This document shows positions 5,126-37,975 of a stretch of 64,000 bases of DNA, in pieces; within the stretch, counting starts at the first letter, position 1; every line of letters begins with the position of its first letter. The translations under genes were made by a program, and so were the position numbers. Source of the DNA: Thermoplasmatota archaeon (GTDB taxonomy: Archaea > Thermoplasmatota > Penumbrarchaeia > Penumbrarchaeales > Penumbrarchaeaceae). The notes below the pieces were generated by a model. That model had not been told where the DNA came from and made no database searches. It worked only from the letters and a program-made list of their open reading frames with translations. The stretch spans positions 18,896-82,895 of the forward strand of contig JBLIRK010000001.1 in assembly GCA_048569615.1 (NCBI GenBank), written 5' to 3'.

Positions 5126-5755
5126 TCAATATGGCGGTTGCCTCGGATGCTGGGGGGAGTAACCAGGTTGTTGGCCGTATGTTTGCTGGTATGATTGCTG
5201 GGGAGCGTGGCCGGGTTGTTGCCCGTACAATTGCTGGTAGGTCTGTTGCGCCGGACCCGGCTCAGGTTGAGGAGGGACCGGGGCCGGTTTCTTCTTTTTC
5301 TTCAGCAAGCCCACCAAGAAAAGTACTATTCCGAGTATCAGGAGAATACCCATGAAACTTCCGCAGCAGCAACTCGGACCCCAGACTGCAGCGGAAGAAT
5401 AATCGGCGGAAGCTTCTGGACCCAATTCCCTGTATTCGATCTCCACAACTATCCTGTCCCCCTCATTACCTAAGTCCTGGGAGGAAAGGAAATTGTTATC
5501 ACACCCCTCGAATTTGTATGAATAAATGCTTACACCCAATAAAGAGGTCTCATCCTCTTCGGCAATTTTCCCGTGAAAAGTTTCCTTGTCCCCTCGGCTG
5601 GAGGACTCTACCCAATCATCATACTCCTTCTCTGCATTCTTTGGAAACATCCAAAAACCTGGAGGAAGCACAAAGCTCAATATTATCACTAAAAATATCC
5701 CTACAATGGCTATTATCCCGATTATCAATCCTGCTGTCTTTAATTTGCTCATCAA
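5126..5755 (-). CDS. Membrane protein with two TM segments and a Pro/Gln/Tyr-rich low-complexity C-terminal tail
   Basis: N-terminal TM LIIGIIAIVGIFLVIILSFVL. A CCCGSFMGILLILGIVLFLVGLL segment followed by KKKKKP. Tail repeats QQTYQQLYGQQPGHAPQQSYQQTYGQQPGYSPQHP. Confidence 0.5.
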   Translation of the reverse strand: MMSKLKTAGLIIGIIAIVGIFLVIILSFVLPPGFWMFPKNAEKEYDDWVESSSRGDKETFHGKIAEEDETSLLGVSIYSYKFEGCDNNFLSSQDLGNEGDRIVVEIEYRELGPEASADYSSAAVWGPSCCCGSFMGILLILGIVLFLVGLLKKKKKPAPVPPQPEPGPAQQTYQQLYGQQPGHAPQQSYQQTYGQQPGYSPQHPRQPPY

Positions 5756-5851
5756 ATCCCCCTCATATCTTGATAATAAATGGAATAATACAATAAATAA
5801 CTTTCATAAAAATCCCCTTTAAAATGTTAGGTATCCATTTGTGCTTGGTTA

Positions 5852-7618
5852 TCAAGGAGCAAGAGCGCAGAGGAGGTCGGATTCCAATCCCGCGGAGGAA
5901 GGTATCCTTCCTCTTTCCAGGGTCCTCAGAACATCCGACAGAGCGACCATGGACTGGATCGCCCGGATACCCTTTACGGTGTCGGCCTTGTCCGGATACG
6001 AGAGCAGCTGCTCCTTTCCGAGCCCCGTCAGCTCCGATGTGTAGCCCTGGACCAGGGAGTTCCTTATCCTCTCCTGCCACAGCGATCCTACCAGGGAGAG
6101 CTTGTAGATGTACTTGAAGGGCAGCTCCCTTCGCTCCATGACCCTCAGAACGGAGAAATCCTCCATCATCTCCGCATATCCTCCCTTGGCAAGGTTGTAA
6201 TCAAGGAAGAGGAGCTGGAGCTGCCTGCTCTCGTAGGGGAGGTCAGGATTGGAAAACAGCTGTCTGGCCGTCAGATACCTCGCCTTCATGAAGGAGTTCA
6301 TCAGCATGGATAGGTCCTTAAGGGGAAGGAACTTCTCCAGCTTCTCCTTCTCCACCCCGTAGAAATCCCATCCGAAGCCGTTCAGGATGTACCCTCCTTC
6401 GGAGTTGTGTTCTATCTTCTCAAGCCTGCAGTCCAGGGCAACGGGAAGGATAGGCGCTCCCCTGAATGACCTGATGGAGCCGAGCCTGGACCTCAGCTGT
6501 TTCTCCGATTTCATGAAACTGGTCCTGAACATATCCAGGGACAGCTCGTCCATCCCGTCCACCCTCGCGGGAATGACAGTCCTCTTGAGTGGTTTTAACC
6601 TCCTTCCGGTCTTTGGATTGACCACCTGCTTGTCCCCCAGGAGTCTGACGAATTCCCTCTTCAACTCCCCGAGATAATATGAGGAAGTACCTATGGCGGT
6701 CCCGATGTCCTCGATGTCCATGCGTGAGGGGGAGAACAGCTCGACGATATCCGTTCCAACCCTCTTGTGTCCCTCGGAATGGTGGAAGTCCTCCATGACA
6801 AGGCAGGAGTGAAGGGATCCAAGCATCCTGCCGAGCTCCACCGCCCTCCTGAAGGAGGTCCTATCCTTGGATAGCGACAGCTGAACCAGGAACCTCCTTG
6901 CCTTGTCCCCGTCCAGTTCGAGGAATGCTTTGGAGATATCTCCAAGGTCCTTCAGGAATGTCCTGAACGAGGGCTGGACCGAGCCGGTCTCTCTGGTGAG
7001 CTTCAACCAGGGCATTACCCTTCCTTTCCGCTCCCACATAGACATTCCAAGCAGTCTTGGAACGTGGTGACAGCCCATCGAATTGATCCTGGCATGCATG
7101 AAATATCCCATGGGGCTCTGTGCGAGTTTCCGGGACACCGAGAGCAGATACCTGTAACGATCAACCGTAATCCTGATCCCCAGGTCCCCGTTCTCCTTCA
7201 GGACCTCCAATCTGCTGCTCTCGGACCCGATATCCTCCTGATATCCCCCATCCCATATTCCGAAGGTCTGGTACTTGAGTCCGGAGCTCCCTGGATAATC
7301 TAGAGTATAACCGCTGTTGAAAAGGGAGAGCTGTGAAAGAACAAAGATCCTCAGGGCTCTGCTGTCAAGGTCGGATATCTCATCGCTGCCGGATCGGTCG
7401 AGCCAGATGTTCATATGATTCCCGCCGGACCCTACAAGAACCAGGCTTCCGCCCCCGTCGGGCAATTCGGCTTTCCCGAGGATCTCGACGGGATCGCGGT
7501 CGGAGAAATACCCAGAACTGGATGCGATATCCAGGGCTATTTCTCCGGCAGGCCCGATCGAATCTTCATCTTCTTCCAGCTCCGATACCTCCATTTCAGT
7601 CTGATTGACACTACCCAT
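5852..7618 (-). CDS. Large conserved hypothetical protein (588 aa), cytoplasmic, no recognisable motif
   Basis: Long intact ORF with balanced composition, an acidic N-terminus, and no TM or signal peptide. I do not recognise the family. Confidence 0.45.
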   Translation of the reverse strand: MGSVNQTEMEVSELEEDEDSIGPAGEIALDIASSSGYFSDRDPVEILGKAELPDGGGSLVLVGSGGNHMNIWLDRSGSDEISDLDSRALRIFVLSQLSLFNSGYTLDYPGSSGLKYQTFGIWDGGYQEDIGSESSRLEVLKENGDLGIRITVDRYRYLLSVSRKLAQSPMGYFMHARINSMGCHHVPRLLGMSMWERKGRVMPWLKLTRETGSVQPSFRTFLKDLGDISKAFLELDGDKARRFLVQLSLSKDRTSFRRAVELGRMLGSLHSCLVMEDFHHSEGHKRVGTDIVELFSPSRMDIEDIGTAIGTSSYYLGELKREFVRLLGDKQVVNPKTGRRLKPLKRTVIPARVDGMDELSLDMFRTSFMKSEKQLRSRLGSIRSFRGAPILPVALDCRLEKIEHNSEGGYILNGFGWDFYGVEKEKLEKFLPLKDLSMLMNSFMKARYLTARQLFSNPDLPYESRQLQLLFLDYNLAKGGYAEMMEDFSVLRVMERRELPFKYIYKLSLVGSLWQERIRNSLVQGYTSELTGLGKEQLLSYPDKADTVKGIRAIQSMVALSDVLRTLERGRIPSSAGLESDLLCALAP

Positions 7619-7739
7619 GAGGGATATGGGGATGGTAGCTCATTCAATTTAATAAATGTGATATGGTTTTTCAAAGGTTCGGGTTCGAGGATCTGTCTTC
7701 AGGAATCAGATATATAAGTATTGAGCACTTCACCGCTCC

Positions 7740-28280: not shown

Positions 28281-28643
28281 TCATTTCTTTCGGGGGGTCA
28301 TCCTACCGATATTGACCATTTCCTCCGCATAGGACTGCCTTCCGTTCTTCTTAATCATCTCCAATGCGGAGCCCCTGTCGGAGCCGAATATCAATGAAAA
28401 CGCCTTCGCCATCAAATTGTTCAACTGCTTGCACTCATACGGATCCGAGAATTCCCTGCAGTCCGCACATGTATGGTAACCGTGGTCGATGCAGCAGGAC
28501 CTGATCTTGCACCATGATGCTTTCTCATTCCCTGCGCATCCCTGGCATCTACCTTTCTTGAACTTCCCGCATTCACCGCAGTACAGTCCGCAGTAGGCCA
28601 CAAGGTCCTTATTCGGTTTTACCGGCACCATGTCGATCGCCAT
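28281..28643 (-). CDS. Cys-rich DUF3795-like protein (putative metal/FeS-binding)
   Basis: YCGLYCGECGKFKKGRCQGCAGN...WCKIRSCCIDHGYHTCADC. Confidence 0.55.
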   Translation of the reverse strand: MAIDMVPVKPNKDLVAYCGLYCGECGKFKKGRCQGCAGNEKASWCKIRSCCIDHGYHTCADCREFSDPYECKQLNNLMAKAFSLIFGSDRGSALEMIKKNGRQSYAEEMVNIGRMTPRKK

Positions 28644-30359: not shown

Positions 30360-30433
30360 TGCAATTCATTATAAAAACAAGACCTGTGGGGAGGGAGATC
30401 GAAGTAAAACGAAAGTAAGTATCATTATAAAAT

Positions 30434-30880
30434 TCAATACGCTGAACTATATGATTTCGCTATGATATCTTTTTCCCAGACGACCTTGTTCTCGTCAATA
30501 TTGATTATTATTACCGAATATGTCTCGCCCTGGGTTAGGGCTGGAAGTCCGGTTGCGATTGTGAGAGTATCTCCGGCGTTCGAGGTTGTAGTGTCAGTCA
30601 GAGTCGTTGTATCAATCTTGATATCATAGTCTCCCCAGTTGATCTGTCCATATACGATCTCTATTTCGATCATGTCAGCCGTATTTGGTCCGGATACATC
30701 CGCATAGAGATTAACCTTAATGCCTAAGGTTTCAACCTCATCTTCCTCATGATGATAAGGTTCAGAAATTAGAAAAGCAACAAAGCATCCAATGAAAAAG
30801 AATGTAACGAATGAGAAAACCATCGGACATGATATATTCCCTACTTTCTCTTCATTATCGATATATTTCATACTAGACAT
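30434..30880 (-). CDS. Paralogue A of a small N-terminally membrane-anchored protein family associated with the rSAM/SPASM gene
   Basis: MSSMKY...TM FSFVTFFFIGCFVAFLI; core ..KVNLYADVSGPNTADMIEIEIVYGQINWGDYDIKIDTTTLTDTT..; C-terminus ..NKVVWEKDIIAKSYSSAY. About 75% nt identity to paralogue B over the 3' half. The track start 30988 was rejected. Confidence 0.6.
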   Translation of the reverse strand: MSSMKYIDNEEKVGNISCPMVFSFVTFFFIGCFVAFLISEPYHHEEDEVETLGIKVNLYADVSGPNTADMIEIEIVYGQINWGDYDIKIDTTTLTDTTTSNAGDTLTIATGLPALTQGETYSVIIINIDENKVVWEKDIIAKSYSSAY

Positions 30881-30930
30881 GATATTTACCGAATTAATAT
30901 GAATAAATATATACCTTCCCCTTTTATAAA

Positions 30931-31092
30931 TCAAGGATTTGATAATTCTGGTCTGTACACTGGCGTTCCATACATAGATTGGCCCCAAAGGAATACATAT
31001 GTTATTGAAAATCCGATAAGGAATCCCAACACCGCGCTAGAGATGATGAGTATCCAATTACCGACACTCATAGAAGTGAAATAACTGAACAT
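30931..31092 (-). CDS. Unannotated 53-aa small membrane peptide, paralogue of 31622..31768, with a conserved C-terminal YGTP[IV]YRP motif
   Basis: Hand translation: MFSYFTSMSVGNWILIISSAVLGFLIGFSITYVFLWGQSMYGTPVYRPELSNP. ATG start, TGA stop. Aligns with the other peptide over NWILIISSAVLGFLIGF/QWIILISTALVSFSIGF and MYGTPVYRP/HYGTPIYRP. Confidence 0.45.
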   Translation of the reverse strand: MFSYFTSMSVGNWILIISSAVLGFLIGFSITYVFLWGQSMYGTPVYRPELSNP

Positions 31093-31157
31093 TAATATAT
31101 CTTTTACTATTATAGTTAATATTCAACGATAATGGAAAAAAATTTTAACTTTCTCTG

Positions 31158-31595
31158 TCAATATGAAGAAACATATGATTTTGCAATGATATCTTTTTCC
31201 CAAACGACCTTGTTCATAACTATATCTATTATTTTAACATTGTATTCATCGCCCTGAGTGAGTGTCAGCCCAGTGCTGATGACCAGGGTCTCACCAGCGG
31301 TTGTAACGGTGGTATTTGTCAAGGTTGTCGTTCCTACTATGATCCGGTAGTCTCCCCATTCAATCGTCCCGGAAATAACCTCTATTTCAATCTTGTCTGC
31401 CCCTGCTATCTCTGTATCCTCGTAGAGATTGACTTTGATATTCAAAGGACGATGAAAAGGTTCAGATCCATCTTCCCATGGAAACACTATAACTCCTAAT
31501 ATAAATCCACCGATAAAAGATAATATTATTACTATTACAAATGCTATGGCCATCCATGGTGTCCAGATCCTTTCTCTTTCATAAACATCGACCAT
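31158..31595 (-). CDS. Paralogue B of the small membrane-anchored protein family
   Basis: TM MAIAFVIVIILSFIGGFILGVIVF. Core ..KVNLYEDTEIAGADKIEIEVISGTIEWGDYRIIVGTTTLTNTT.. C-terminus ..NKVVWEKDIIAKSYVSSY. Confidence 0.6.
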   Translation of the reverse strand: MVDVYERERIWTPWMAIAFVIVIILSFIGGFILGVIVFPWEDGSEPFHRPLNIKVNLYEDTEIAGADKIEIEVISGTIEWGDYRIIVGTTTLTNTTVTTAGETLVISTGLTLTQGDEYNVKIIDIVMNKVVWEKDIIAKSYVSSY

Positions 31596-31621
31596 ATATC
31601 AATCCCCAATTTTTCATTTTA

Positions 31622-31768
31622 TTATTTTATCGCTGGACGATATATCGGTGTACCATAGTGTTCCTCTGGCATATTGCTCGATAAGGCTATGAATGCGGCA
31701 CATGCGAATCCAATGGAAAAGCTAACCAACGCGGTTGATATCAATATTATCCACTGTGCTAACTTCAT
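31622..31768 (-). CDS. Unannotated 48-aa small membrane peptide immediately downstream of the rSAM/SPASM gene (candidate precursor peptide)
   Basis: Hand translation: MKLAQWIILISTALVSFSIGFACAAFIALSSNMPEEHYGTPIYRPAIK. ATG start, TAA stop. It lies 69 nt after the rSAM stop and 26 nt before paralogue B. Confidence 0.45.
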   Translation of the reverse strand: MKLAQWIILISTALVSFSIGFACAAFIALSSNMPEEHYGTPIYRPAIK

Positions 31769-31837
31769 GTATATACATACAATAATGGAAATTTATATCT
31801 ATCTAAGAGCTTTTACGAATGAATATTTTTAATATTA

Positions 31838-33190
31838 TTAATTATTCCTTGATATTTCATATAAGCATAGATCATTGTGTTTTAAATCCGTACCCTGGGT
31901 TACCATCGAGGTCACACATCCTCCCCTGCATGTTACCGAGTACTTGCATTTGGCGCAAAAGCCATCAAGTTCCCTTTCCTTCCTGTTGAAGGAGAATGTG
32001 TTTATGTTCCGCCATAGATCGAAAAAATCATGTGTCCTGATATTGCCGACAACGAAATTGTCGGGTTGTATGGGGCATCCTTTAATTTCCCCTTCAGGAC
32101 CTATTGCTGCATGATTCAATCCTGCCATGCAACCTTTCCATTCATGATCTCTTAGGTCATGATTGGAATGGTAACCGAGGCTGTCTCCCACGAAAACCTT
32201 GCATTTCCCTTCTAATTGATGTCTGAACTCTGATACCTTGTCAGCAAGTTTTACATATTCCCCCTTGCTCAAAGACATCTCGCTGGAGAGATTTCCCAAG
32301 GGGATTGCATAGAATATCTCCCAGGATGTTATCTTTTTTTGGATAATGAGTTCCTTGATATTATCAAGATCATCGAAGTTCTTCTTTGAGATGGAGGTCG
32401 TTACTCCGAAAGGGATTTTGTATTTTCGAAATAACGATATCGTATTCATGACCTTTTCGAAAACTCCCTCCATATTTCTAAAATCATCATGTACTTTACC
32501 TACTCCATCCAGACTTATGTGTATATTGAACGTATCCAATTCTTTTATCTTCGTGGCCATTTCATCATCAATCAATGTTCCATTGGTTGTTATGCCTACT
32601 TCGATACCGCTTTTCCTCGCTTCACCTAGGATCTGGAAGATGTCTGGTCTTATGAAGGGCTCCCCTCCAGATACATTTATTATGAACACTCCATTTTCAG
32701 CCCAGCCCTTCACGCAATCGATAGCCTCTGTAGTGGAGAGTTCTCTTTTTCTCTTCACATTGTCCCTGTTGGCGCAATGCGAGCATCGGAGGTTGCACTC
32801 ATTTGTGATGATCCAAGAGAGCTGATTTGGTGCTGAAAGAAATGGGTATTTTTCCTTACTTTTAAAGTATTTTGATTGAGGAATTTCTTTATCCATCTCG
32901 ATGAATCCAGATCCCTGAAGGACTGCAATCGAATTTAGGAAAAACACAGCATCGACAAAACGCGAACCCACTTTCTTCTCTTTATATAATTCGAATAGCT
33001 CTTCAATCGTTTTCTTCCCATCAATCAAAAATAGTATATCACTGATCTCCTCCCCGACATGGAGTAAGAATAGGTCTTCAGGATTGAAAATTGTATGACC
33101 AAATGATTCCTTTCTTATCTTAAGTTCTTTTTTTTGGGGGATCGAACTTGAATATTCCATTAGAAGTATCTTTTCAAACATTGTTATCAT
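31838..33190 (-). CDS. Radical SAM enzyme with an N-terminal PqqD-like RiPP-recognition element (RRE) and a C-terminal SPASM (auxiliary 4Fe-4S) domain
   Basis: rSAM cluster motif ITNECNLRCSHCANRD (CxxxCxxC). GGEPF. C-terminal Cys-rich SPASM region ..KGCMAGLNHAAIGPEGEIKGCP...FCAKCKYSVTCRGGCV.. N-terminal ~120 aa: ..GHTIFNPEDLFLLHVGEEISDILFLIDGKKTIEELFELYKEK.. resembles PqqD/RRE. Confidence 0.85.
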   Translation of the reverse strand: MITMFEKILLMEYSSSIPQKKELKIRKESFGHTIFNPEDLFLLHVGEEISDILFLIDGKKTIEELFELYKEKKVGSRFVDAVFFLNSIAVLQGSGFIEMDKEIPQSKYFKSKEKYPFLSAPNQLSWIITNECNLRCSHCANRDNVKRKRELSTTEAIDCVKGWAENGVFIINVSGGEPFIRPDIFQILGEARKSGIEVGITTNGTLIDDEMATKIKELDTFNIHISLDGVGKVHDDFRNMEGVFEKVMNTISLFRKYKIPFGVTTSISKKNFDDLDNIKELIIQKKITSWEIFYAIPLGNLSSEMSLSKGEYVKLADKVSEFRHQLEGKCKVFVGDSLGYHSNHDLRDHEWKGCMAGLNHAAIGPEGEIKGCPIQPDNFVVGNIRTHDFFDLWRNINTFSFNRKERELDGFCAKCKYSVTCRGGCVTSMVTQGTDLKHNDLCLYEISRNN

Positions 33191-33205
33191 CTATCTTTTT
33201 ATTTT

Positions 33206-33682
33206 TTAATCTCCCCACCCGTAACTGGCGTAGACGTAATCCCTCCAGACCAGGTCGTCCCAGTAATCATATATGGTTACCTCGTAGTATTCATCGGATT
33301 CTATATCCATATCGTAGATATGGAAAACCATCTCGTCTCCGGAATATGACCAGTAGTCGTAATAGGTGTCGGGATGGACCCTTTCGTTACCGACATAGAC
33401 CTGATAGTCGCTCCAGTAGATCCTTCCGTAATAAACGTATATGACCAGTGTGTCATCCTCGGAATAGAGGTTGGCATTAATATCCCAGTCTTCCCCGTAA
33501 TAATCATCATCGTAGCTCTCCTCCCAGGGATCATCGGGAAATGCGACATAAACCACTATTACGGACACCACGATCCCTGAAACGAAAAATGCCGGAAGCA
33601 GGAAGAAGAAGACCTTCAGCCACATTGGGTCCTGCCCACCAGATTCCCTCTCCATGGAAAGAGCATCGAAAGGATAGTTCAA
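33206..33682 (-). CDS. Paralogue C (divergent) of the small membrane-anchored protein family, with an ectodomain extremely rich in Tyr/Asp/Trp
   Basis: TM LKVFFFLLPAFFVSGIVVSVIVVYVAF. ..INANLYSEDDTLVIYVYYGRIYWSDYQVYVGNERV.. aligns to ..KVNLYxD...IEIE...G.I.WGDY.I.. of A/B. C-terminus ..LVWRDYVYASYGWGD resembles VVWEKDIIAKSY. Confidence 0.55.
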   Translation of the reverse strand: MNYPFDALSMERESGGQDPMWLKVFFFLLPAFFVSGIVVSVIVVYVAFPDDPWEESYDDDYYGEDWDINANLYSEDDTLVIYVYYGRIYWSDYQVYVGNERVHPDTYYDYWSYSGDEMVFHIYDMDIESDEYYEVTIYDYWDDLVWRDYVYASYGWGD

Positions 33683-33697: not shown

Positions 33698-36600
33698 CTA
33701 TGCCGCCCTGGTCCTGGCCAGAAGGTCCTCCCTTGCCGTCCTTATAACGAAGTTAAGCCTGTTGTAGAGGTTGACCTCCGATGTGCCGGGATCCATATCC
33801 AGATACAGGACATTGAGGTCTGGATATTTCTTCTTCAGGGCCTTCTCAACCCCTTTCCCGATGATATGGTTCGATATGCATCCGAAGGGCTGAACGCATA
33901 TTACGTTGTTTACATCATCCTCGGCGAAGGCACCGATCTCCCCGGGTATGAGCCATCCCTCACCGAACTGGTCAACAAGGCTGACGACGTCCCTGGACTT
34001 CTTTGCCAGGGACCCGACGTAGTGGTTCCTTCTGTAGTACTTGAACTTGGCCCTGACCTTCTCGTACATCCTCATGTAGTATCTGGCGATCCACTCCTCG
34101 GGATAGGAGAGCACCGTCTTCAATCCTCTATTACCGGTATCGTTATCGGCATGGAACCTTACGTTCAAATATTCCTGGGCGAAGAAATCAGTGATAGGAG
34201 GCACTATCACATCGATGCCCTGCTCCACCATGTAATCGACGATGAAGAAATGTCCGAAGGGATTGTACTTGGCATAGATCTCTCCCACCAGGCCTATGGT
34301 CGGATGCTCCTCATCGTCCGTTTCCACCCGGTTGAACTCGAGAACCGCCTGCTCCAGGAGCTCCGGGAGCTCCCCCTCCCTCCCGAACTCTATCGCCCTG
34401 CCCGCCATCTGTATGTACTTGTCGGAAAGATCCGAGGCCTCGCCCTTGTTGATCTCCCTGACGGCAGTGGAATAGTACATCTGCATCACTGCATCCGCAA
34501 ACAGGACGCCGTGGAGACCCTGGAGCACCATTTTCCTCTTGTTTATCCTGAATCCCGGCTGGTAGTTGAGCTGCTTGCTGGACATGGACAGCGTTATCAC
34601 CGGCACATCCTCGAAACCGGCCGATACGAGTCCCTTCTGCAGGAGAGAGAGGTAGGAGGAGGCACGGCATTGGCCTCCCGTCTGGGTTATCCCTGCGGCA
34701 ACGTCCCTTTGATCGTACCTGCCGGAAAGTAGAGCCTTGAGGATATCACCGATGACTATCACCGCCGGATAGCATATCTCGTTGTTGCAGTACTTCAAAC
34801 CGACTTCCACCGATTCCCTGTCAGGAGGAGGAAGCACCTCCAGGTCGTATCCCAATGAAGAGAACGATGATATCAGGAGGGGGGAGTAGAACCTGGAGAA
34901 GAAGGGAGCGATTATCTTCCTTTTCCTGTCCTGGATCGTATAGGCCGGCGTGACCTTTCTTTTCATGGGCCGGAACCTCTTCCCGAGCCCCCTTATCTCC
35001 AGGGACTCCATCATGGACCTGAGCCTCAACCGTATAGAGCCGGGGGAGCTCACCTCGTCGATCCTCAGGAGAGTGTGGTTCTTGCCCGCCTCGGCAAGCA
35101 AGGTCCTGGCCTCATCGCAAACGAGCGCATCCGGACCGCAGCCGAAGGAATTCAACTGAACTACCTCGACGTTGTCCTGCTCCTTTGCCCACTGGACCGC
35201 TTTGTATACCCTGTTGGGATACTGCCACTGGGTGAGCACTCCCACATCGGCAAGGGTTCTGTCGGAAACGGGAACCGAATCCTCGGTGATCACATCCGCT
35301 CCCAGACCTGCCAGCATCTCCGTGAGCTTGTGGTTGATGAGGTGATCGATATGATAGGGTCTTCCCACCAGAAGGACCACCAGCCTTTTTTCCTTTTTAG
35401 CCTCCGAGATGATCCCAAGGGCCTTCTCCCTCACGCTCTCCTTGTAGGATATCTGCTCCCGCAAAGCCTTCTCGAAGGCTTCCCTTGCCTTCTTTCCCTC
35501 CACCCCGAGGCCCTTGAGGTACTTCATGCAGCCTTTCCTGAGCAATCTCCTGTCCTTGAATGAGATAGTTGGAGAATCGAAGGGTATTCCCAGACGCTCC
35601 TCAGGATCCAAGGCGCTTCTTACAACATCGGAGTAGCCGGAAACGACAGGGCAGTTGAATGAATCCAGCTGACCCTCGAACTCCTGCTCCTCGAACAACA
35701 CCATCGGTAAGAATATCCTGTCAACCTTCATCTCCGCAAGTTTCTTTACGTGGCCGTTGACGAGCTTTGCGGGGAAACAGATGTTCTCCGACATCGTGCT
35801 CCTTGTCCCCAGCTCGTTTATCTCCGGGGTGGATGGAGGAGAGAGGACGAACTCGAAACCGCTCTCCCGAAGAAGAGTGGCCCAGAAGGGGAAGTTCTCG
35901 TATATGTTCAGGACCCTCGGTATTCCTATCCTTCCAAGGGGGAGTCCTTCCGGTGAAAGCTTGCGGTCGAAGAGTAGATCGAGCTTGATATCGGCCAGGT
36001 TGCAACCCTTTCTCGTACCCGTTCCTGCGTTATTGAAGATCTTCTCGCACTTGTTCCCGGTGTAGAAGAGCTTGCCGTTCCCGAAGGTGAACTGGGTGAC
36101 AGTGCAGCTGTTCCGGCAGCCGCCGCATCTGATGAAACACGCGGTATTCTCCGTTGCCATGTCAAGACTGCCGAAACCGACAAATGTGGATGCCTGGGCA
36201 TCCTTTGAATACGAATCCGCTGCGGTCAAAGCCGCTCCGTATGCTCCCATGAGCTCAGGTGAATCGGAGCAGATCAGTTCCTTTCCGAGTAACAGCTCGA
36301 ATGCCCTGTGAACGGCAGGATTCCTGAACGTGCCCCCTTGGACTACGATATTATCACCAAGAACATCCGGGTCCTTGATCTTCAGGACCTTGTAAAGGCA
36401 GTTCTTCACCACAGAGAACGCCAATCCTGCCGAGATATCCGGGACCGAGGCCCCCTCCCTCAATGCCTGCTTCACTTTGGAGTTCATGAAAACGGTGCAT
36501 CTTGTGCCCAGGTCGTAGGGTCTTTTGGATTCGCAGGCCATCCTGGTAAAATCCTCGACGCTCTCTCCGAGGTTGTTGGCGAATGTCTCTATGAACGAGC

Positions 36601-37975
36601 CGCATCCGGAGGAGCAGGCCTCGTTTATCTCAATATCATTTATCACGCCCGCATGGATAAAGATGGCCTTCATGTCCTGACCGCCTATGTCGAGGATGAA
36701 GCTCGCATCATCCGCGAACTCCCTCGCGGCCCTGAAATGGGCCAGGGTCTCGACCATTCCGATATCCAAGCCGTAGGCGGCCCTGATCAGGTCTTCGCCG
36801 TAACCCGTCACAGCTGTCTTGGCCACATCAAGCGCTATTCCAACCTCGCAGGCCCTTTCATCAAGCTCTTCCAGGCCCTTCCTGACCGTCCCTATGGGAT
36901 CGCCGCCGTTGGGGGAGTAGAAGCTGAATGCAATGCCGCCTTCTCCATCCGCCAGGACGATTTTTGTCGTTGTGGATCCGGAATCTATTCCAAGGAAGCA
37001 TTTTCCATCCTTCAGGTCACCCACCTCCACGGTCCTTACTATCGGCCTCATCCTCCTCGAATCCCATTCCAGGAACTCGTTACGGTCCCCGAAAAGCGGG
37101 TCCAGCCTGCTGCCCAGGAAGTCGTTCGAATCGGGCTCTCTTCCCAGTTTGTCCTCTAATTCGGAGACAGTTACCTCCATTCTATCTATGTCATCGTACA
37201 TTGCCGTCCCCAGGGCCGGAAACAGCTCCGGATGCTTCGGGTCCGCGACATCCGCTTCCGGGACCTCCAGGACCTCTAGGTAATATCTCCTCAGTTCCGG
37301 CAGGAAGGTGAAGGGTCCTCCGCAGAACAGGACCTTTGGTCTGGGATCATATCCCCTCGACAGGCTTGAAACAGTCTGAAGGGCAACAGAATGGAAGATG
37401 GATGATGCAATCTCCTCCTTCGATATCTTCCTAGCCATTAGGTTTTGTACATCGGTCTTTGCGAAGACGCCGCATCTGGATGCCATGCTGTGATGTCTTT
37501 CGGCCTTCTTCGCCAGGTCGTTAAGGTCAACGAGGGATACATTCAGAAGTGTCGCCATCTGGTCTATGAAAGCCCCCGTGCCTCCAGCGCAACTTCCGTT
37601 CATTCTGATATCTATCCTCATCCTGTCATCGAAGAAGATCATCTTGGAATCTTCCCCTCCAACGTCTATGAGGGTCCTCACATCCGGATGGCGCCTCCTC
37701 ACCACCTCAGCCGCGGCGACAACTTCCTGAACGAAGGGGATCCCGTACCTCTCGGAAACGCCGAAACCGGCGGAGCCCGTGACAGATATGCTGAGCCTGG
37801 TATCTCCAAGCTCCAGTTTTGCATCTTCCAGCATGTCGATCAGTGTCTTGGATACCTGGGCGTTATGCCTTCTGTAATCCCTGTATAGAATTCCATTTCC
37901 ATGGTCCAGGACCACGATCTTGGCTGTTGTGGACCCAAGATCTATGCCGGCCCTCAACGCCTTTTGATCTGCCAA
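33698..37975 (-). CDS. Giant fusion protein: two BadF/BadG/BcrA/BcrD (HgdC-type) acetate/sugar-kinase-fold ATPase domains plus a C-terminal HgdB/D-component-like (DUF2229) domain ('CoA-substrate-specific enzyme activase' family)
   Basis: GIDLGSTTAKIVVLD and FLGIDSGSTTTKIVLADGEG phosphate-1 motifs. Cys pairs typical of the bridging [4Fe-4S] site. Long C-terminal domain. 1425 aa, no internal stops. Confidence 0.75.
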   Translation of the reverse strand: MADQKALRAGIDLGSTTAKIVVLDHGNGILYRDYRRHNAQVSKTLIDMLEDAKLELGDTRLSISVTGSAGFGVSERYGIPFVQEVVAAAEVVRRRHPDVRTLIDVGGEDSKMIFFDDRMRIDIRMNGSCAGGTGAFIDQMATLLNVSLVDLNDLAKKAERHHSMASRCGVFAKTDVQNLMARKISKEEIASSIFHSVALQTVSSLSRGYDPRPKVLFCGGPFTFLPELRRYYLEVLEVPEADVADPKHPELFPALGTAMYDDIDRMEVTVSELEDKLGREPDSNDFLGSRLDPLFGDRNEFLEWDSRRMRPIVRTVEVGDLKDGKCFLGIDSGSTTTKIVLADGEGGIAFSFYSPNGGDPIGTVRKGLEELDERACEVGIALDVAKTAVTGYGEDLIRAAYGLDIGMVETLAHFRAAREFADDASFILDIGGQDMKAIFIHAGVINDIEINEACSSGCGSFIETFANNLGESVEDFTRMACESKRPYDLGTRCTVFMNSKVKQALREGASVPDISAGLAFSVVKNCLYKVLKIKDPDVLGDNIVVQGGTFRNPAVHRAFELLLGKELICSDSPELMGAYGAALTAADSYSKDAQASTFVGFGSLDMATENTACFIRCGGCRNSCTVTQFTFGNGKLFYTGNKCEKIFNNAGTGTRKGCNLADIKLDLLFDRKLSPEGLPLGRIGIPRVLNIYENFPFWATLLRESGFEFVLSPPSTPEINELGTRSTMSENICFPAKLVNGHVKKLAEMKVDRIFLPMVLFEEQEFEGQLDSFNCPVVSGYSDVVRSALDPEERLGIPFDSPTISFKDRRLLRKGCMKYLKGLGVEGKKAREAFEKALREQISYKESVREKALGIISEAKKEKRLVVLLVGRPYHIDHLINHKLTEMLAGLGADVITEDSVPVSDRTLADVGVLTQWQYPNRVYKAVQWAKEQDNVEVVQLNSFGCGPDALVCDEARTLLAEAGKNHTLLRIDEVSSPGSIRLRLRSMMESLEIRGLGKRFRPMKRKVTPAYTIQDRKRKIIAPFFSRFYSPLLISSFSSLGYDLEVLPPPDRESVEVGLKYCNNEICYPAVIVIGDILKALLSGRYDQRDVAAGITQTGGQCRASSYLSLLQKGLVSAGFEDVPVITLSMSSKQLNYQPGFRINKRKMVLQGLHGVLFADAVMQMYYSTAVREINKGEASDLSDKYIQMAGRAIEFGREGELPELLEQAVLEFNRVETDDEEHPTIGLVGEIYAKYNPFGHFFIVDYMVEQGIDVIVPPITDFFAQEYLNVRFHADNDTGNRGLKTVLSYPEEWIARYYMRMYEKVRAKFKYYRRNHYVGSLAKKSRDVVSLVDQFGEGWLIPGEIGAFAEDDVNNVICVQPFGCISNHIIGKGVEKALKKKYPDLNVLYLDMDPGTSEVNLYNRLNFVIRTAREDLLARTRAA

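Follow-up and report, generated by a model that had tools for sequence, protein, structure and literature searches.

Two small membrane peptides with a conserved YGTPxYRP tail and an adjacent radical SAM/SPASM enzyme look like an undescribed peptide-modification system in a Thermoplasmatota archaeon

We analyzed a 64,000-nt stretch of a Thermoplasmatota archaeon genome (referred to here as the window) and found two small paralogous genes next to a radical SAM/SPASM gene; together, the peptides and the enzyme look like an undescribed peptide-modification system. The two peptides are probably membrane-anchored substrates whose C-terminal tail would be modified by the adjacent enzyme. Among the loci that we compared, the motif-bearing ORF is the sole constant gene companion of this radical SAM/SPASM family.

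Peptide 1 (positions 31622..31768, minus strand, 48 aa, ATG start) is what we propose the radical SAM enzyme acts on, and peptide 2 (30931..31092, minus strand, 53 aa, ATG start) is a paralogue of peptide 1; the coordinates, strand and translations given for the two ORFs by the first-pass annotation all agree with ours. That annotation had described a pair of paralogous membrane peptides with a YGTP[IV]YRP C-terminus, and the description held up, as each peptide carries one transmembrane (TM) helix and the two match each other with a BLASTP E-value of 7e-12 (18/48 identical residues). In peptide 1, the residues MK are followed by the helix (∼residues 3-31 by hydropathy) and the tail SSNMPEEH-YGTPIYRP-AIK; in peptide 2, the helix is followed by the tail GQSM-YGTPVYRP-ELSNP. 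The motif is encoded on the minus strand at 31634..31657 in peptide 1 (TAT GGT ACA CCG ATA TAT CGT CCA) and at 30949..30972 in peptide 2 (TAT GGA ACG CCA GTG TAC AGA CCA), and a six-frame scan of the 64 kb for YG[TS]PxY[RK]P returned these two sites only. Against the family HMM the peptides scored E = 3.7e-18 and 2.5e-15, respectively. Peptide 2 may alternatively start at an internal Met at 31071 (MSVGNW...), giving 46 aa; in the alignment, peptide 1 and the one-helix homologues begin at this same place. The spacing was also as first reported: the radical SAM stop codon lies 69 nt from the ATG of peptide 1, and the peptides sit directly 5' of the neighboring genes B (26 nt after the peptide 1 stop) and A (∼50 nt after the peptide 2 stop).

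On sequence evidence, both ORFs are almost certainly genuine small genes. The first-pass view that the peptides are conserved in spite of divergence at the DNA level is borne out most clearly in the motif: seven residues are shared by the two copies, and a different codon is used at five of the seven. Over the eight motif codons, synonymous differences were counted at 5.5 of 6.3 sites and non-synonymous differences at 2.5 of 17.7 sites (pS = 0.87, pN = 0.14). The proposed dN/dS check between the two copies was precluded in its classical form by saturation of synonymous sites (pS = 0.76, pN = 0.44 over the whole alignment); for this reason selection was judged by codon diversity across loci. 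The residues Y, G, P, R, and P do not vary among 19 aligned tails, and these five residues are encoded by both Tyr codons, four Gly codons, four Pro codons (at each Pro position), and five Arg codons. Such synonymous variety at invariant residues indicates that selection acts on the protein. One could still regard the two reading frames as chance ORFs in AT-rich intergenic DNA, since they are short, were left uncalled by the annotation pipeline and lie in locally AT-rich DNA, but this reading is refuted by the BLASTP match between the paralogues, by HMM matches to family members from other phyla (E = 1e-15 to 1e-18) and by the codon variety just described. The Rfam search, which found no RNA family in the region, also speaks against it, and we give it practically no credence. 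In an alignment of the two peptide units, DNA divergence was too high for reliable shared promoter elements.

The remark that the ORFs had been missed by the ORF track extends to public data. The sequences of peptides 1 and 2 are absent from a collection of 15 billion proteins. In the deposited MAG, B and C are numbered ACMUIE_00210 and ACMUIE_00220 and only 00215 is left, for the radical SAM gene; peptide 1 therefore has no annotated number. A word-indexed protein search with peptide 1 as the sole query found nothing. A protein search with the tail alignment recovered 10 proteins, and an exhaustive HMMER search recovered 25 clusters among 1.84 billion representatives. Pfam and NCBIfam hold no model for the family, and their profiles gave only scattered sub-threshold matches to hydrophobic proteins when run on 32 family members; in the literature, neither the motif nor membrane-anchored radical SAM precursors were found described. 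The family occurs in Thermoplasmatota, Methanoperedens, unclassified archaea, and Patescibacteria. In a Patescibacteria-type clade, a conserved alpha/beta hydrolase gene (Abhydrolase_1/S33-type) abuts the enzyme gene; it is convergently transcribed, and its product has no obvious signal peptide.

The family tail reads Y-G-[T/V/A]-P-x-[Y/H/F/A]-R-P, followed by 2-5 residues and the stop codon, with one motif per protein. Y-G-[T/V/A] is universal and Y/H/F-R-P is found in most members; L010 and L011 have Ala at tail position 6. No Cys was seen after the last helix in any of the tails listed. A genome-contig scan with the single enzyme sequence gave no matches, and the loci compared here came from an alignment-based scan. 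By six-frame motif scan and tail HMM, a motif ORF adjoins the radical SAM/SPASM orthologue in 18/18 other loci, i.e., all of those with upstream DNA (L001-L006, L010-L013, L015-L018, L020-L022, and L027). Its usual place is 0-10 nt upstream of the enzyme gene or overlapping the enzyme start codon. The homologous small ORFs that the first-pass annotation had proposed to look for beside the same enzyme in other genomes were thus found, and together with the codon variety they substantiate its claim of real coding. No motif ORF was found alongside the more distant radical SAM enzymes of L008, L009, and L023 (27-36% identity). The linkage can also be read from the peptide side: P0130 is followed by a 451-aa Radical_SAM/SPASM gene that overlaps the P0130 stop codon, and peptide P0123 is followed by a gene fragment matching the enzyme N-terminus. 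Across the family loci, no other conserved gene was found beside the peptide/enzyme pair. We concluded from these comparisons of sequence and gene order that the motif is under protein-level selection and tied to the enzyme family across domains of life.

The radical SAM/SPASM enzyme (31838..33190, minus strand) is a 450-aa ORF, the deposited protein beginning three residues later, with Pfam matches to Radical_SAM (E = 4.8e-27) and SPASM (E = 1.8e-7). Its CX3CX2C motif is C132-x3-C136-x2-C139, with all three Cys invariant in 28 orthologues, and the seven-Cys SPASM motif (C354, G367-x4-C372, C412-x2-C415-x5-C421-x3-C425, and C442) is likewise all invariant. The AlphaFold2 (AF2) model of the enzyme (pLDDT 88) contains an N-terminal RRE-like domain (∼residues 20-95, pLDDT >90) built of three strands (24-27, 31-36, and 41-46) and three helices (47-55, 62-71, and 77-93). 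The best PDB matches were SuiB, SkfB, CteB, and PqqE, and GDGT-MAS was also matched; the top Foldseek match, SuiB, was full-length (E = 6e-21, TM 0.72). The family profile aligned residues 21-431 to SuiB residues 23-444 and residues 37-242 to CteB residues 18-227, so that the N-terminal domains (RREs) of both proteins are covered. The modeled architecture is that of a peptide maturase. Features of the general class of RRE-dependent radical SAM/SPASM peptide maturases were found, namely the CX3CX2C motif, the seven-Cys SPASM motif, the RRE-like domain, and a co-located precursor with a conserved motif.

No described enzyme family claimed the protein, every match among the best 25 of 90 NCBIfam matches being below its cut-off. 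The best scores were 186 bits for NirJ2 and 175 bits for AhbD (cut-offs 500), followed by the Nif11-class radical SAM maturase 3 (166 bits, cut-off 725). Current labels of the enzyme family, which counts roughly 60 orthologues, are 'heme synthase', 'pterin dimethyltransferase' and 'radical SAM protein', assigned because the peptides were missed by standard annotation. Assignment to the heme and heme d1 enzymes (AhbD, NirJ, NirJ2) was rejected, as the scores are far below 500 and no recurring tetrapyrrole gene lies beside the enzyme. The protein also has the RRE-like N-terminal domain, which is not expected in AhbD. For the radical SAM/SPASM system with an associated lipoprotein (TIGR04133/TIGR04134), the enzyme scored 149.5 bits against a cut-off of 425 and the family peptide P0122 scored 15.4 against a cut-off of 39.8 for the partner, with only the hydrophobic N-terminus of the profile covered; this assignment fails on both scores.

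These matches bear on whether the tail is modified at all. It could instead be a docking partner that recruits the enzyme to the membrane via the RRE-like domain, the tail itself staying unmodified while the enzyme acts on another substrate (lipid, tetrapyrrole, or membrane protein). Conservation of the tail alone, on any membrane protein as carrier, is what pure tethering predicts; the top NCBIfam scores belong to the tetrapyrrole enzymes NirJ2 and AhbD, and the PDB matches include GDGT-MAS, a radical SAM enzyme that modifies lipids. On the other hand, the NirJ/AhbD scores reach only about one third of what those families require, the proteins matched best in structure over the full length are peptide maturases that share the three-domain layout, the tail resembles known cross-link motifs in having an invariant Tyr and Arg within a loop constrained by Gly and Pro, and no conserved candidate gene for a second substrate was found nearby. 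We consider docking without modification unlikely, and we are fairly confident, from the gene linkage and the tail conservation, that the tail is the enzyme's substrate.

In the window, the peptides and the enzyme share a compositional island (30400..33650; GC 33-45% vs. 50-58% in both flanks) with three further genes, its content being exactly A, peptide 2, B, peptide 1, the radical SAM gene, and C. A (30434..30880, minus strand, 148 aa), downstream of peptide 2, is a paralogue of B with 54% identity; B (31158..31595, minus strand, 145 aa), downstream of peptide 1, consists of a TM helix and a beta-sandwich in a pilin-like architecture; and C (33206..33655, minus strand, 149 aa as annotated), just upstream of the radical SAM gene, is a distant A/B paralogue. 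C has no motif, yet it fills the slot that is held by the precursor in every other locus. The gene order of the window is unlike that of every other locus in that the peptides lie downstream of the enzyme, across the 69-nt gap. A search around the low-GC island for insertion-site repeats and tRNA genes gave nothing convincing. The first-pass annotation had suggested, as one of two options, that the peptides and A/B form a membrane complex with the peptides as its small subunits, which would make them parts of a membrane or surface complex with pilin-like proteins, unrelated to the radical SAM enzyme. HMM and phmmer searches detected no homologue of A, B, or C in the 27 other loci, the protein collection contains B and C only as singletons, and the motif accompanies the enzyme everywhere. 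The conserved partner is therefore the enzyme and not A/B, and we consider the subunit reading highly improbable. The idea that the window holds a 'split' version of the Methanoperedens carrier was rejected too, as A/B/C showed no relation to the Methanoperedens ectodomain at the profile level (profile-profile probability 0.1%).

The other first-pass option, that the peptides are RiPP precursors, stands in part: the constant companionship of a radical SAM enzyme and the RRE-like domain favor it, but the classical leader/core organization does not apply. Conservation is restricted to the last 10-13 residues and nothing N-terminal of the motif is conserved, while the architecture of the carrier varies from one helix up to a signal peptide, an ectodomain, and four helices (as in Methanoperedens), and a carrier can be a 320-aa multi-pass protein. 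The hydrophobic part is best read as an interchangeable membrane carrier rather than a sequence-specific leader. In 37/42 carriers, the last helix has more positive charge on its N-terminal flank than on its C-terminal flank, and this charge asymmetry predicts that the last helix is oriented from inside to outside. The net charge of the tail is positive in most members, which speaks against an outside location, and the predicted topology should be read with both observations in mind.

If the helix served as a signal or leader and the modified tail of 10-15 residues were freed as a diffusible signal or antimicrobial, the system would be a classical secreted RiPP. The one-helix forms do resemble signal peptides (basic N-terminus, hydrophobic segment, and small-residue stretch; e.g., P0121, ...QALHA-TVKYGTPHYRPKIQ), the charge asymmetry predicts tail export, and the conserved alpha/beta hydrolase lies beside the enzyme in the Patescibacteria-type clade. 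Yet the hydrophobic stretch of ∼20-29 residues has the length of an anchor rather than of a signal peptide, many carriers are multi-pass or bear a 150-aa ectodomain, no family-wide protease or exporter was found, and the hydrolase gene is convergent and its product lacks an obvious signal peptide. Secretion of this kind is improbable in our judgment; it is a sub-variant of the membrane-anchored substrate reading and differs from it solely in the fate of the product.

Among characterized systems, that of streptide (SuiB/StrB and its precursor SuiA/StrA; cross-link from Lys-C-beta to Trp-C7) shares with the window the layout of RRE, radical SAM barrel and two-auxiliary-cluster SPASM domain; a small precursor gene is adjacent in both, and SuiB and our enzyme are 16-17% identical. 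The streptide precursor is soluble, with a leader and a K...W core, and is encoded in a streptococcal quorum-sensing operon with an exporter, whereas the window system has a membrane-anchored precursor with YGxPxxRP, no Trp/Lys pair, and no exporter. Triceptides carry three-residue cyclophanes at aromatic-X-X motifs including those with Tyr and His, for example by WprB on WPR (literature cited in PMC11851443); the invariant Tyr-Gly-[Thr/Val/Ala] is formally an aromatic-X2-X3 sequence with a C-beta-bearing X3. A radical SAM enzyme with a C-terminal auxiliary-cluster domain, encoded beside the precursor, is a further likeness. Triceptide precursors usually have several motif repeats and are soluble, in contrast to the one motif, the additional P..RP, and the membrane carrier seen here. 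No triceptide maturase model was among the best 25 of the 90 NCBIfam matches. The ryptides (RrrB/RrrA) have an Arg-C-delta to Tyr-C3 cross-link made by a radical SAM/SPASM enzyme (PMC11851443). Their likeness to our family lies in the invariant Tyr and Arg of the tail; ryptides are streptococcal, shp/rgg-regulated, soluble, and exported, and in our tails Tyr1 and Arg7 are six residues apart.

In mycofactocin and PQQ biosynthesis (MftC/MftA and PqqE/PqqA), a radical SAM/SPASM enzyme likewise targets a Tyr that lies close to the C-terminal end of a short peptide, and MftC ranks among the top NCBIfam matches, but the C-terminal Gly-Val-Tyr, the Glu-x3-Tyr, the MftB/PqqD chaperone, and the downstream tailoring genes are missing here. 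Assignment to mycofactocin was rejected on the TIGR03962 (MftC) score (159 bits, cut-off 265), on tails ending in RP plus 2-5 variable residues, and on the lack of a conserved MftB-like neighbor; assignment to PQQ was rejected on the TIGR02109 (PqqE) score (101 bits, cut-off 381) and the lack of a conserved Glu in the tail. Sactipeptides and ranthipeptides were rejected as well, as the listed tails have no thioether-donor Cys and the enzyme scored under the cut-offs of the PapB, AlbA, and StsB models. NHLP/Nif11-type precursors are a known case in which a short core at the C-terminus is modified while attached to a long protein-derived N-terminal part; their leaders are soluble and conserved in sequence, whereas the N-terminal part here is hydrophobic, variable in architecture, and not conserved in sequence.

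If the peptides are membrane-anchored substrates, the RRE-like domain and the active site would capture the conserved C-terminal tail, the radical SAM cluster would cleave S-adenosylmethionine, and the 5'-deoxyadenosyl radical would take a hydrogen from a tail residue. A new bond would form within the tail, most likely a carbon-carbon or carbon-oxygen bond to the ring of the invariant Tyr, and an electron would be passed to the SPASM clusters. The bond could produce a cyclophane from the three residues Tyr-Gly-[Thr/Val/Ala], or it could close a Tyr...Arg macrocycle; since position 6 can be Ala, a bond that needs an aromatic residue there would not be universal. We propose such a Tyr-centered cross-link only tentatively. 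Modification would take place in the cytoplasm, ahead of insertion, and the tail would finish on the cell surface, either kept tethered or released by a protease. Several points run counter to this scheme: RiPP precursors do not usually have a transmembrane carrier, the aligned family has no conserved N-terminal segment that could act as an RRE leader, and the gene order of the window departs from that of the other loci. A broader and rather doubtful reading takes the cassette not as a natural-product pathway but as a portable pair of genes by which integral membrane proteins are modified post-translationally, which would place a Tyr-derived cross-link or redox-active group on a short C-terminal tag of any membrane carrier, display it on the surface, and be horizontally transferred among anaerobic archaea and reduced-genome DPANN/CPR organisms. 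If so, the tag could provide these hosts with a tethered cofactor or a ligand, or it could serve in recognition.

Much new bond-forming chemistry comes from radical SAM/SPASM-peptide pairs, and almost all of the pairs characterized belong to cultivated bacteria, with substrate peptides that are soluble and exported. The pair described here is distinctive in that it spans Archaea and candidate-phyla-radiation Bacteria, that two genes suffice, that the eight-residue motif has no Cys and matches no described core, and that the membrane anchor is freely exchanged. If the tail is modified, the system would define a new RiPP-like class, and it would be among the few candidate peptide-modification systems from Thermoplasmatota, Methanoperedens, DPANN, and CPR organisms.

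The window encodes two short minus-strand ORFs, peptide 1 (31622..31768, ATG start, 48 aa) and peptide 2 (30931..31092, ATG start, 53 aa), with coordinates and translations in agreement with the first-pass annotation. Across all 64 kb of the window, translated in six frames, YG[TS]PxY[RK]P occurs at these two peptides only, and the pair aligned with E = 7e-12 (BLASTP). The motif spans eight codons; seven of its residues are common to both peptides, and five of these are specified by different codons (pN 0.14, pS 0.87 over the motif); the full alignment gave pN 0.44 and pS 0.76 (saturated). The ORFs had been described as missed by the ORF track, and indeed both peptides are absent from a 15-billion-protein collection; in the deposited Thermoplasmatota archaeon MAG, the neighboring small proteins B and C are numbered ACMUIE_00210 and ACMUIE_00220, so that no locus tag remains for peptide 1.

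We compared loci with relatives of the neighboring radical SAM/SPASM enzyme (23 from alignment-based scans and four from look-ups); tail ORFs were detected by a six-frame motif scan and by an HMM built from the tails. Adjoining the enzyme gene was an ORF with the C-terminus Y-G-[T/V/A]-P-x-[Y/H/F/A]-R-P plus 2-5 residues (the tail) in L001-L006, L010-L013, L015-L018, L020-L022, and L027, that is, in every locus with DNA upstream of an orthologue; L007, L014, and L019 start inside the enzyme gene and have no upstream DNA. No tail ORF was found in the negative controls L008, L009, and L023, which carry more distant enzymes (27-36% identity). The peptide stop and the enzyme start lie 0-10 nt apart or overlap, and the two genes are therefore probably translationally coupled. 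Reverse look-up from peptide P0130 found a 451-aa Radical_SAM/SPASM protein as the next gene, and the gene fragment following peptide P0123 matches the enzyme N-terminus. Judged by record titles, the hosts belong to Thermoplasmatota, Methanoperedens and Methanosarcinales, Nanoarchaeota, unclassified archaea, Patescibacteria, and Peregrinibacteria. The family is rare: an exhaustive HMMER search of 1.84 billion representatives yielded only 25 clusters (E <= 1e-3), all ending in the motif. As in the window, the precursor for a single enzyme is duplicated in L022, where paralogous multi-helix precursors of 102 aa (5631-5939 and 7343-7651) are encoded both upstream and downstream of the radical SAM gene. 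In the archaeal MAG locus L001, the cassette has a second radical SAM/SPASM gene (833-2242, 469 aa) 3.7 kb upstream.

Across 19 aligned tails, Y, G, P, R, and P never vary. In 20 tails, each of these residues is specified by several synonymous codons: both for Tyr, all four for Gly, five for Arg, and all four for Pro at each Pro position. Such synonymous variation indicates that conservation acts at the protein level; that the peptides are chance ORFs is extremely improbable. Only the last 10-13 residues of the precursors are conserved. The membrane carrier preceding the tail may have one helix (42-59 aa, including the window peptides), two or three helices (78-154 aa), or about five helices (L003 and L004); in the Methanoperedens-type loci (L005 and L016, with L020 and L021 related) it combines a signal peptide with a ∼150-aa ectodomain and four helices.

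The two peptides lie in a compositional island (30400-33650) with a GC content of 33-45%, sharply bordered by flanks of 50-58% on both sides, which suggests horizontal acquisition. No tRNA gene was found in the window, and the island region showed no convincing flanking repeats and no Rfam match. The island holds exactly six genes, in minus-strand order C (33206-33655), the radical SAM/SPASM enzyme (31838-33190), peptide 1 after a gap of 69 nt, B (31158-31595) after a further 26 nt, peptide 2, and A (30434-30880) about 50 nt downstream. Upstream of C, a 1425-aa protein (33698-37975, minus strand; acyl-CoA dehydratase activase type) fuses two BcrAD_BadFG ATPase domains to DUF2229; its gene stops 15 nt short of the longest C reading frame (33682) and is probably outside the island because its GC content is host-like. 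A Cys-rich DUF3795 protein (120 aa, 28281-28643, minus strand) is encoded ∼1.8 kb beyond A, outside the island; by eye from translations, the intervening genes resemble those for a methyltransferase, a glyoxalase, and a GyrI-type protein.

The proteins A, B, and C are paralogous (A vs. B 54% identity, C vs. B 30%), each with a single N-terminal helix and a ∼100-residue beta-strand domain. Immediately before the radical SAM gene, with 15 nt to the enzyme start, lies C, in a position that every other locus gives to a motif-bearing precursor. C lacks the motif and ends in ...YASYGWGD; it may have replaced a precursor or may itself be a substrate. The first-pass annotation had offered a membrane complex of the peptides with A/B. 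All three proteins share the island with the peptides and enzyme in this genome, but they have no homologue at any other locus, the protein collection contains B and C only as singletons, and the three are unrelated to the Methanoperedens ectodomain. Such a complex is thus unsupported as a general explanation, and we regard it as very unlikely. The only other recurrent neighbor is a convergent alpha/beta hydrolase, limited to the Patescibacteria-type clade. It is ∼265 aa long (Abhydrolase_1 and Hydrolase_4/S33 matches) and its gene adjoins or overlaps the radical SAM gene at the latter's 3' end, on the minus strand of each locus (L006 6995-7789, L017 3764-4597, L018 7280-8032, L007 1130-1930, L019 777-1589, and L027 1893-2693); it may process the tail or be unrelated. 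Since only the tail is conserved, A/B/C occur in no other locus, and the hydrolase is clade-limited, we concluded that the universal unit is two genes, a tail-bearing membrane carrier and the enzyme.

The enzyme has Radical_SAM and SPASM domains (Pfam) and about 60 full-length orthologues (40-54% identity). C132-x3-C136-x2-C139 and a canonical seven-Cys SPASM set (C354, G367-x4-C372, C412-x2-C415-x5-C421-x3-C425, and C442) are invariant in 28 orthologues. Ninety NCBIfam models match, and none of the best 25 of the 90 comes near its curated cut-off (NirJ2 186/500, AhbD 175/500, nif11 maturase-3 166/725, MftC 159/265, and PqqE 101/381). Orthologues are named "AdoMet-dependent heme synthase" or "7,8-dihydro-6-hydroxymethylpterin dimethyltransferase" in the sources (P0002 and P0010); with scores below threshold and a peptide partner that is conserved, these names are probably over-annotations. 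In the AlphaFold2 model (pLDDT 88), residues 24-93 form three strands followed by three helices, the topology of an RRE (PqqD-like). The family profile aligns residues 21-431 with SuiB 23-444 and residues 37-242 with CteB 18-227. Among PDB structures, Foldseek ranks peptide maturases first, namely SuiB (E = 6e-21, TM 0.72), SkfB, CteB, and PqqE, with anSME and TigE next. The enzyme has the defining features of the general RRE-radical SAM-SPASM maturase class, and its predicted architecture is that of an RRE-dependent peptide maturase in no described subfamily. Assignment as MftC, PqqE, or AhbD/NirJ was rejected on the sub-cut-off NCBIfam scores, and assignment as a sactipeptide or ranthipeptide maturase or to TIGR04133/04134 was rejected as well.

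The evidence best supports the tail as the probable substrate of the enzyme, because the tail-bearing gene is the enzyme's only constant partner, the two genes are probably coupled, and the enzyme has a putative peptide-binding domain and nearest structural relatives that all modify peptides. Alternatively, the tail might serve only as a membrane docking site for the enzyme, whose substrate would be a different molecule, in keeping with tail-only conservation and the weak NirJ/AhbD similarity; this is unlikely in view of the peptide-maturase architecture and the lack of a conserved second substrate gene.

If the tail is the substrate, sactipeptide/ranthipeptide chemistry is excluded since the tails shown contain no Cys. 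The invariant Tyr and Arg sit within a Gly/Pro-constrained loop, and the radical SAM cross-links documented in PMC11851443 include those from Arg-C-delta to Tyr-C3 (RrrB), from Trp-C5 to Arg-C-gamma at WPR motifs (WprB), and from Lys to Trp (StrB), as well as three-residue cyclophanes on Tyr and His motifs. On these grounds we propose that the enzyme might form a Tyr-centered carbon-carbon or carbon-oxygen cross-link within the tail, either from Tyr1 to residue 3 (T, V, and A all have a C-beta hydrogen) or from Tyr1 to Arg7. Because L010 and L011 have Ala at position 6, this residue cannot be essential.

Net positive charge is higher in the 15 residues ahead of the last helix than in the 15 that follow it in 37 of 42 carriers. 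Together with the Methanoperedens-type arrangement, whose signal peptide looks cleavable, this asymmetry points to a tail outside the cell, although the whole tail is net positive in most members. With the tail outside, the cytoplasmic enzyme would have to act before insertion, and the product would be surface-displayed or released. A secreted RiPP of the classical kind, with a signal-like leader, would be a variant of the tail-as-substrate reading that differs in product fate alone; we assign it a low probability.

No Pfam or NCBIfam model matches the peptides, and our literature search, thin for subscription journals so that a prior mention is possible, found no description of the system. 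The enzyme belongs to a familiar class; the membrane-anchored precursor family and its core motif, present in both prokaryotic domains, appear to be undescribed.
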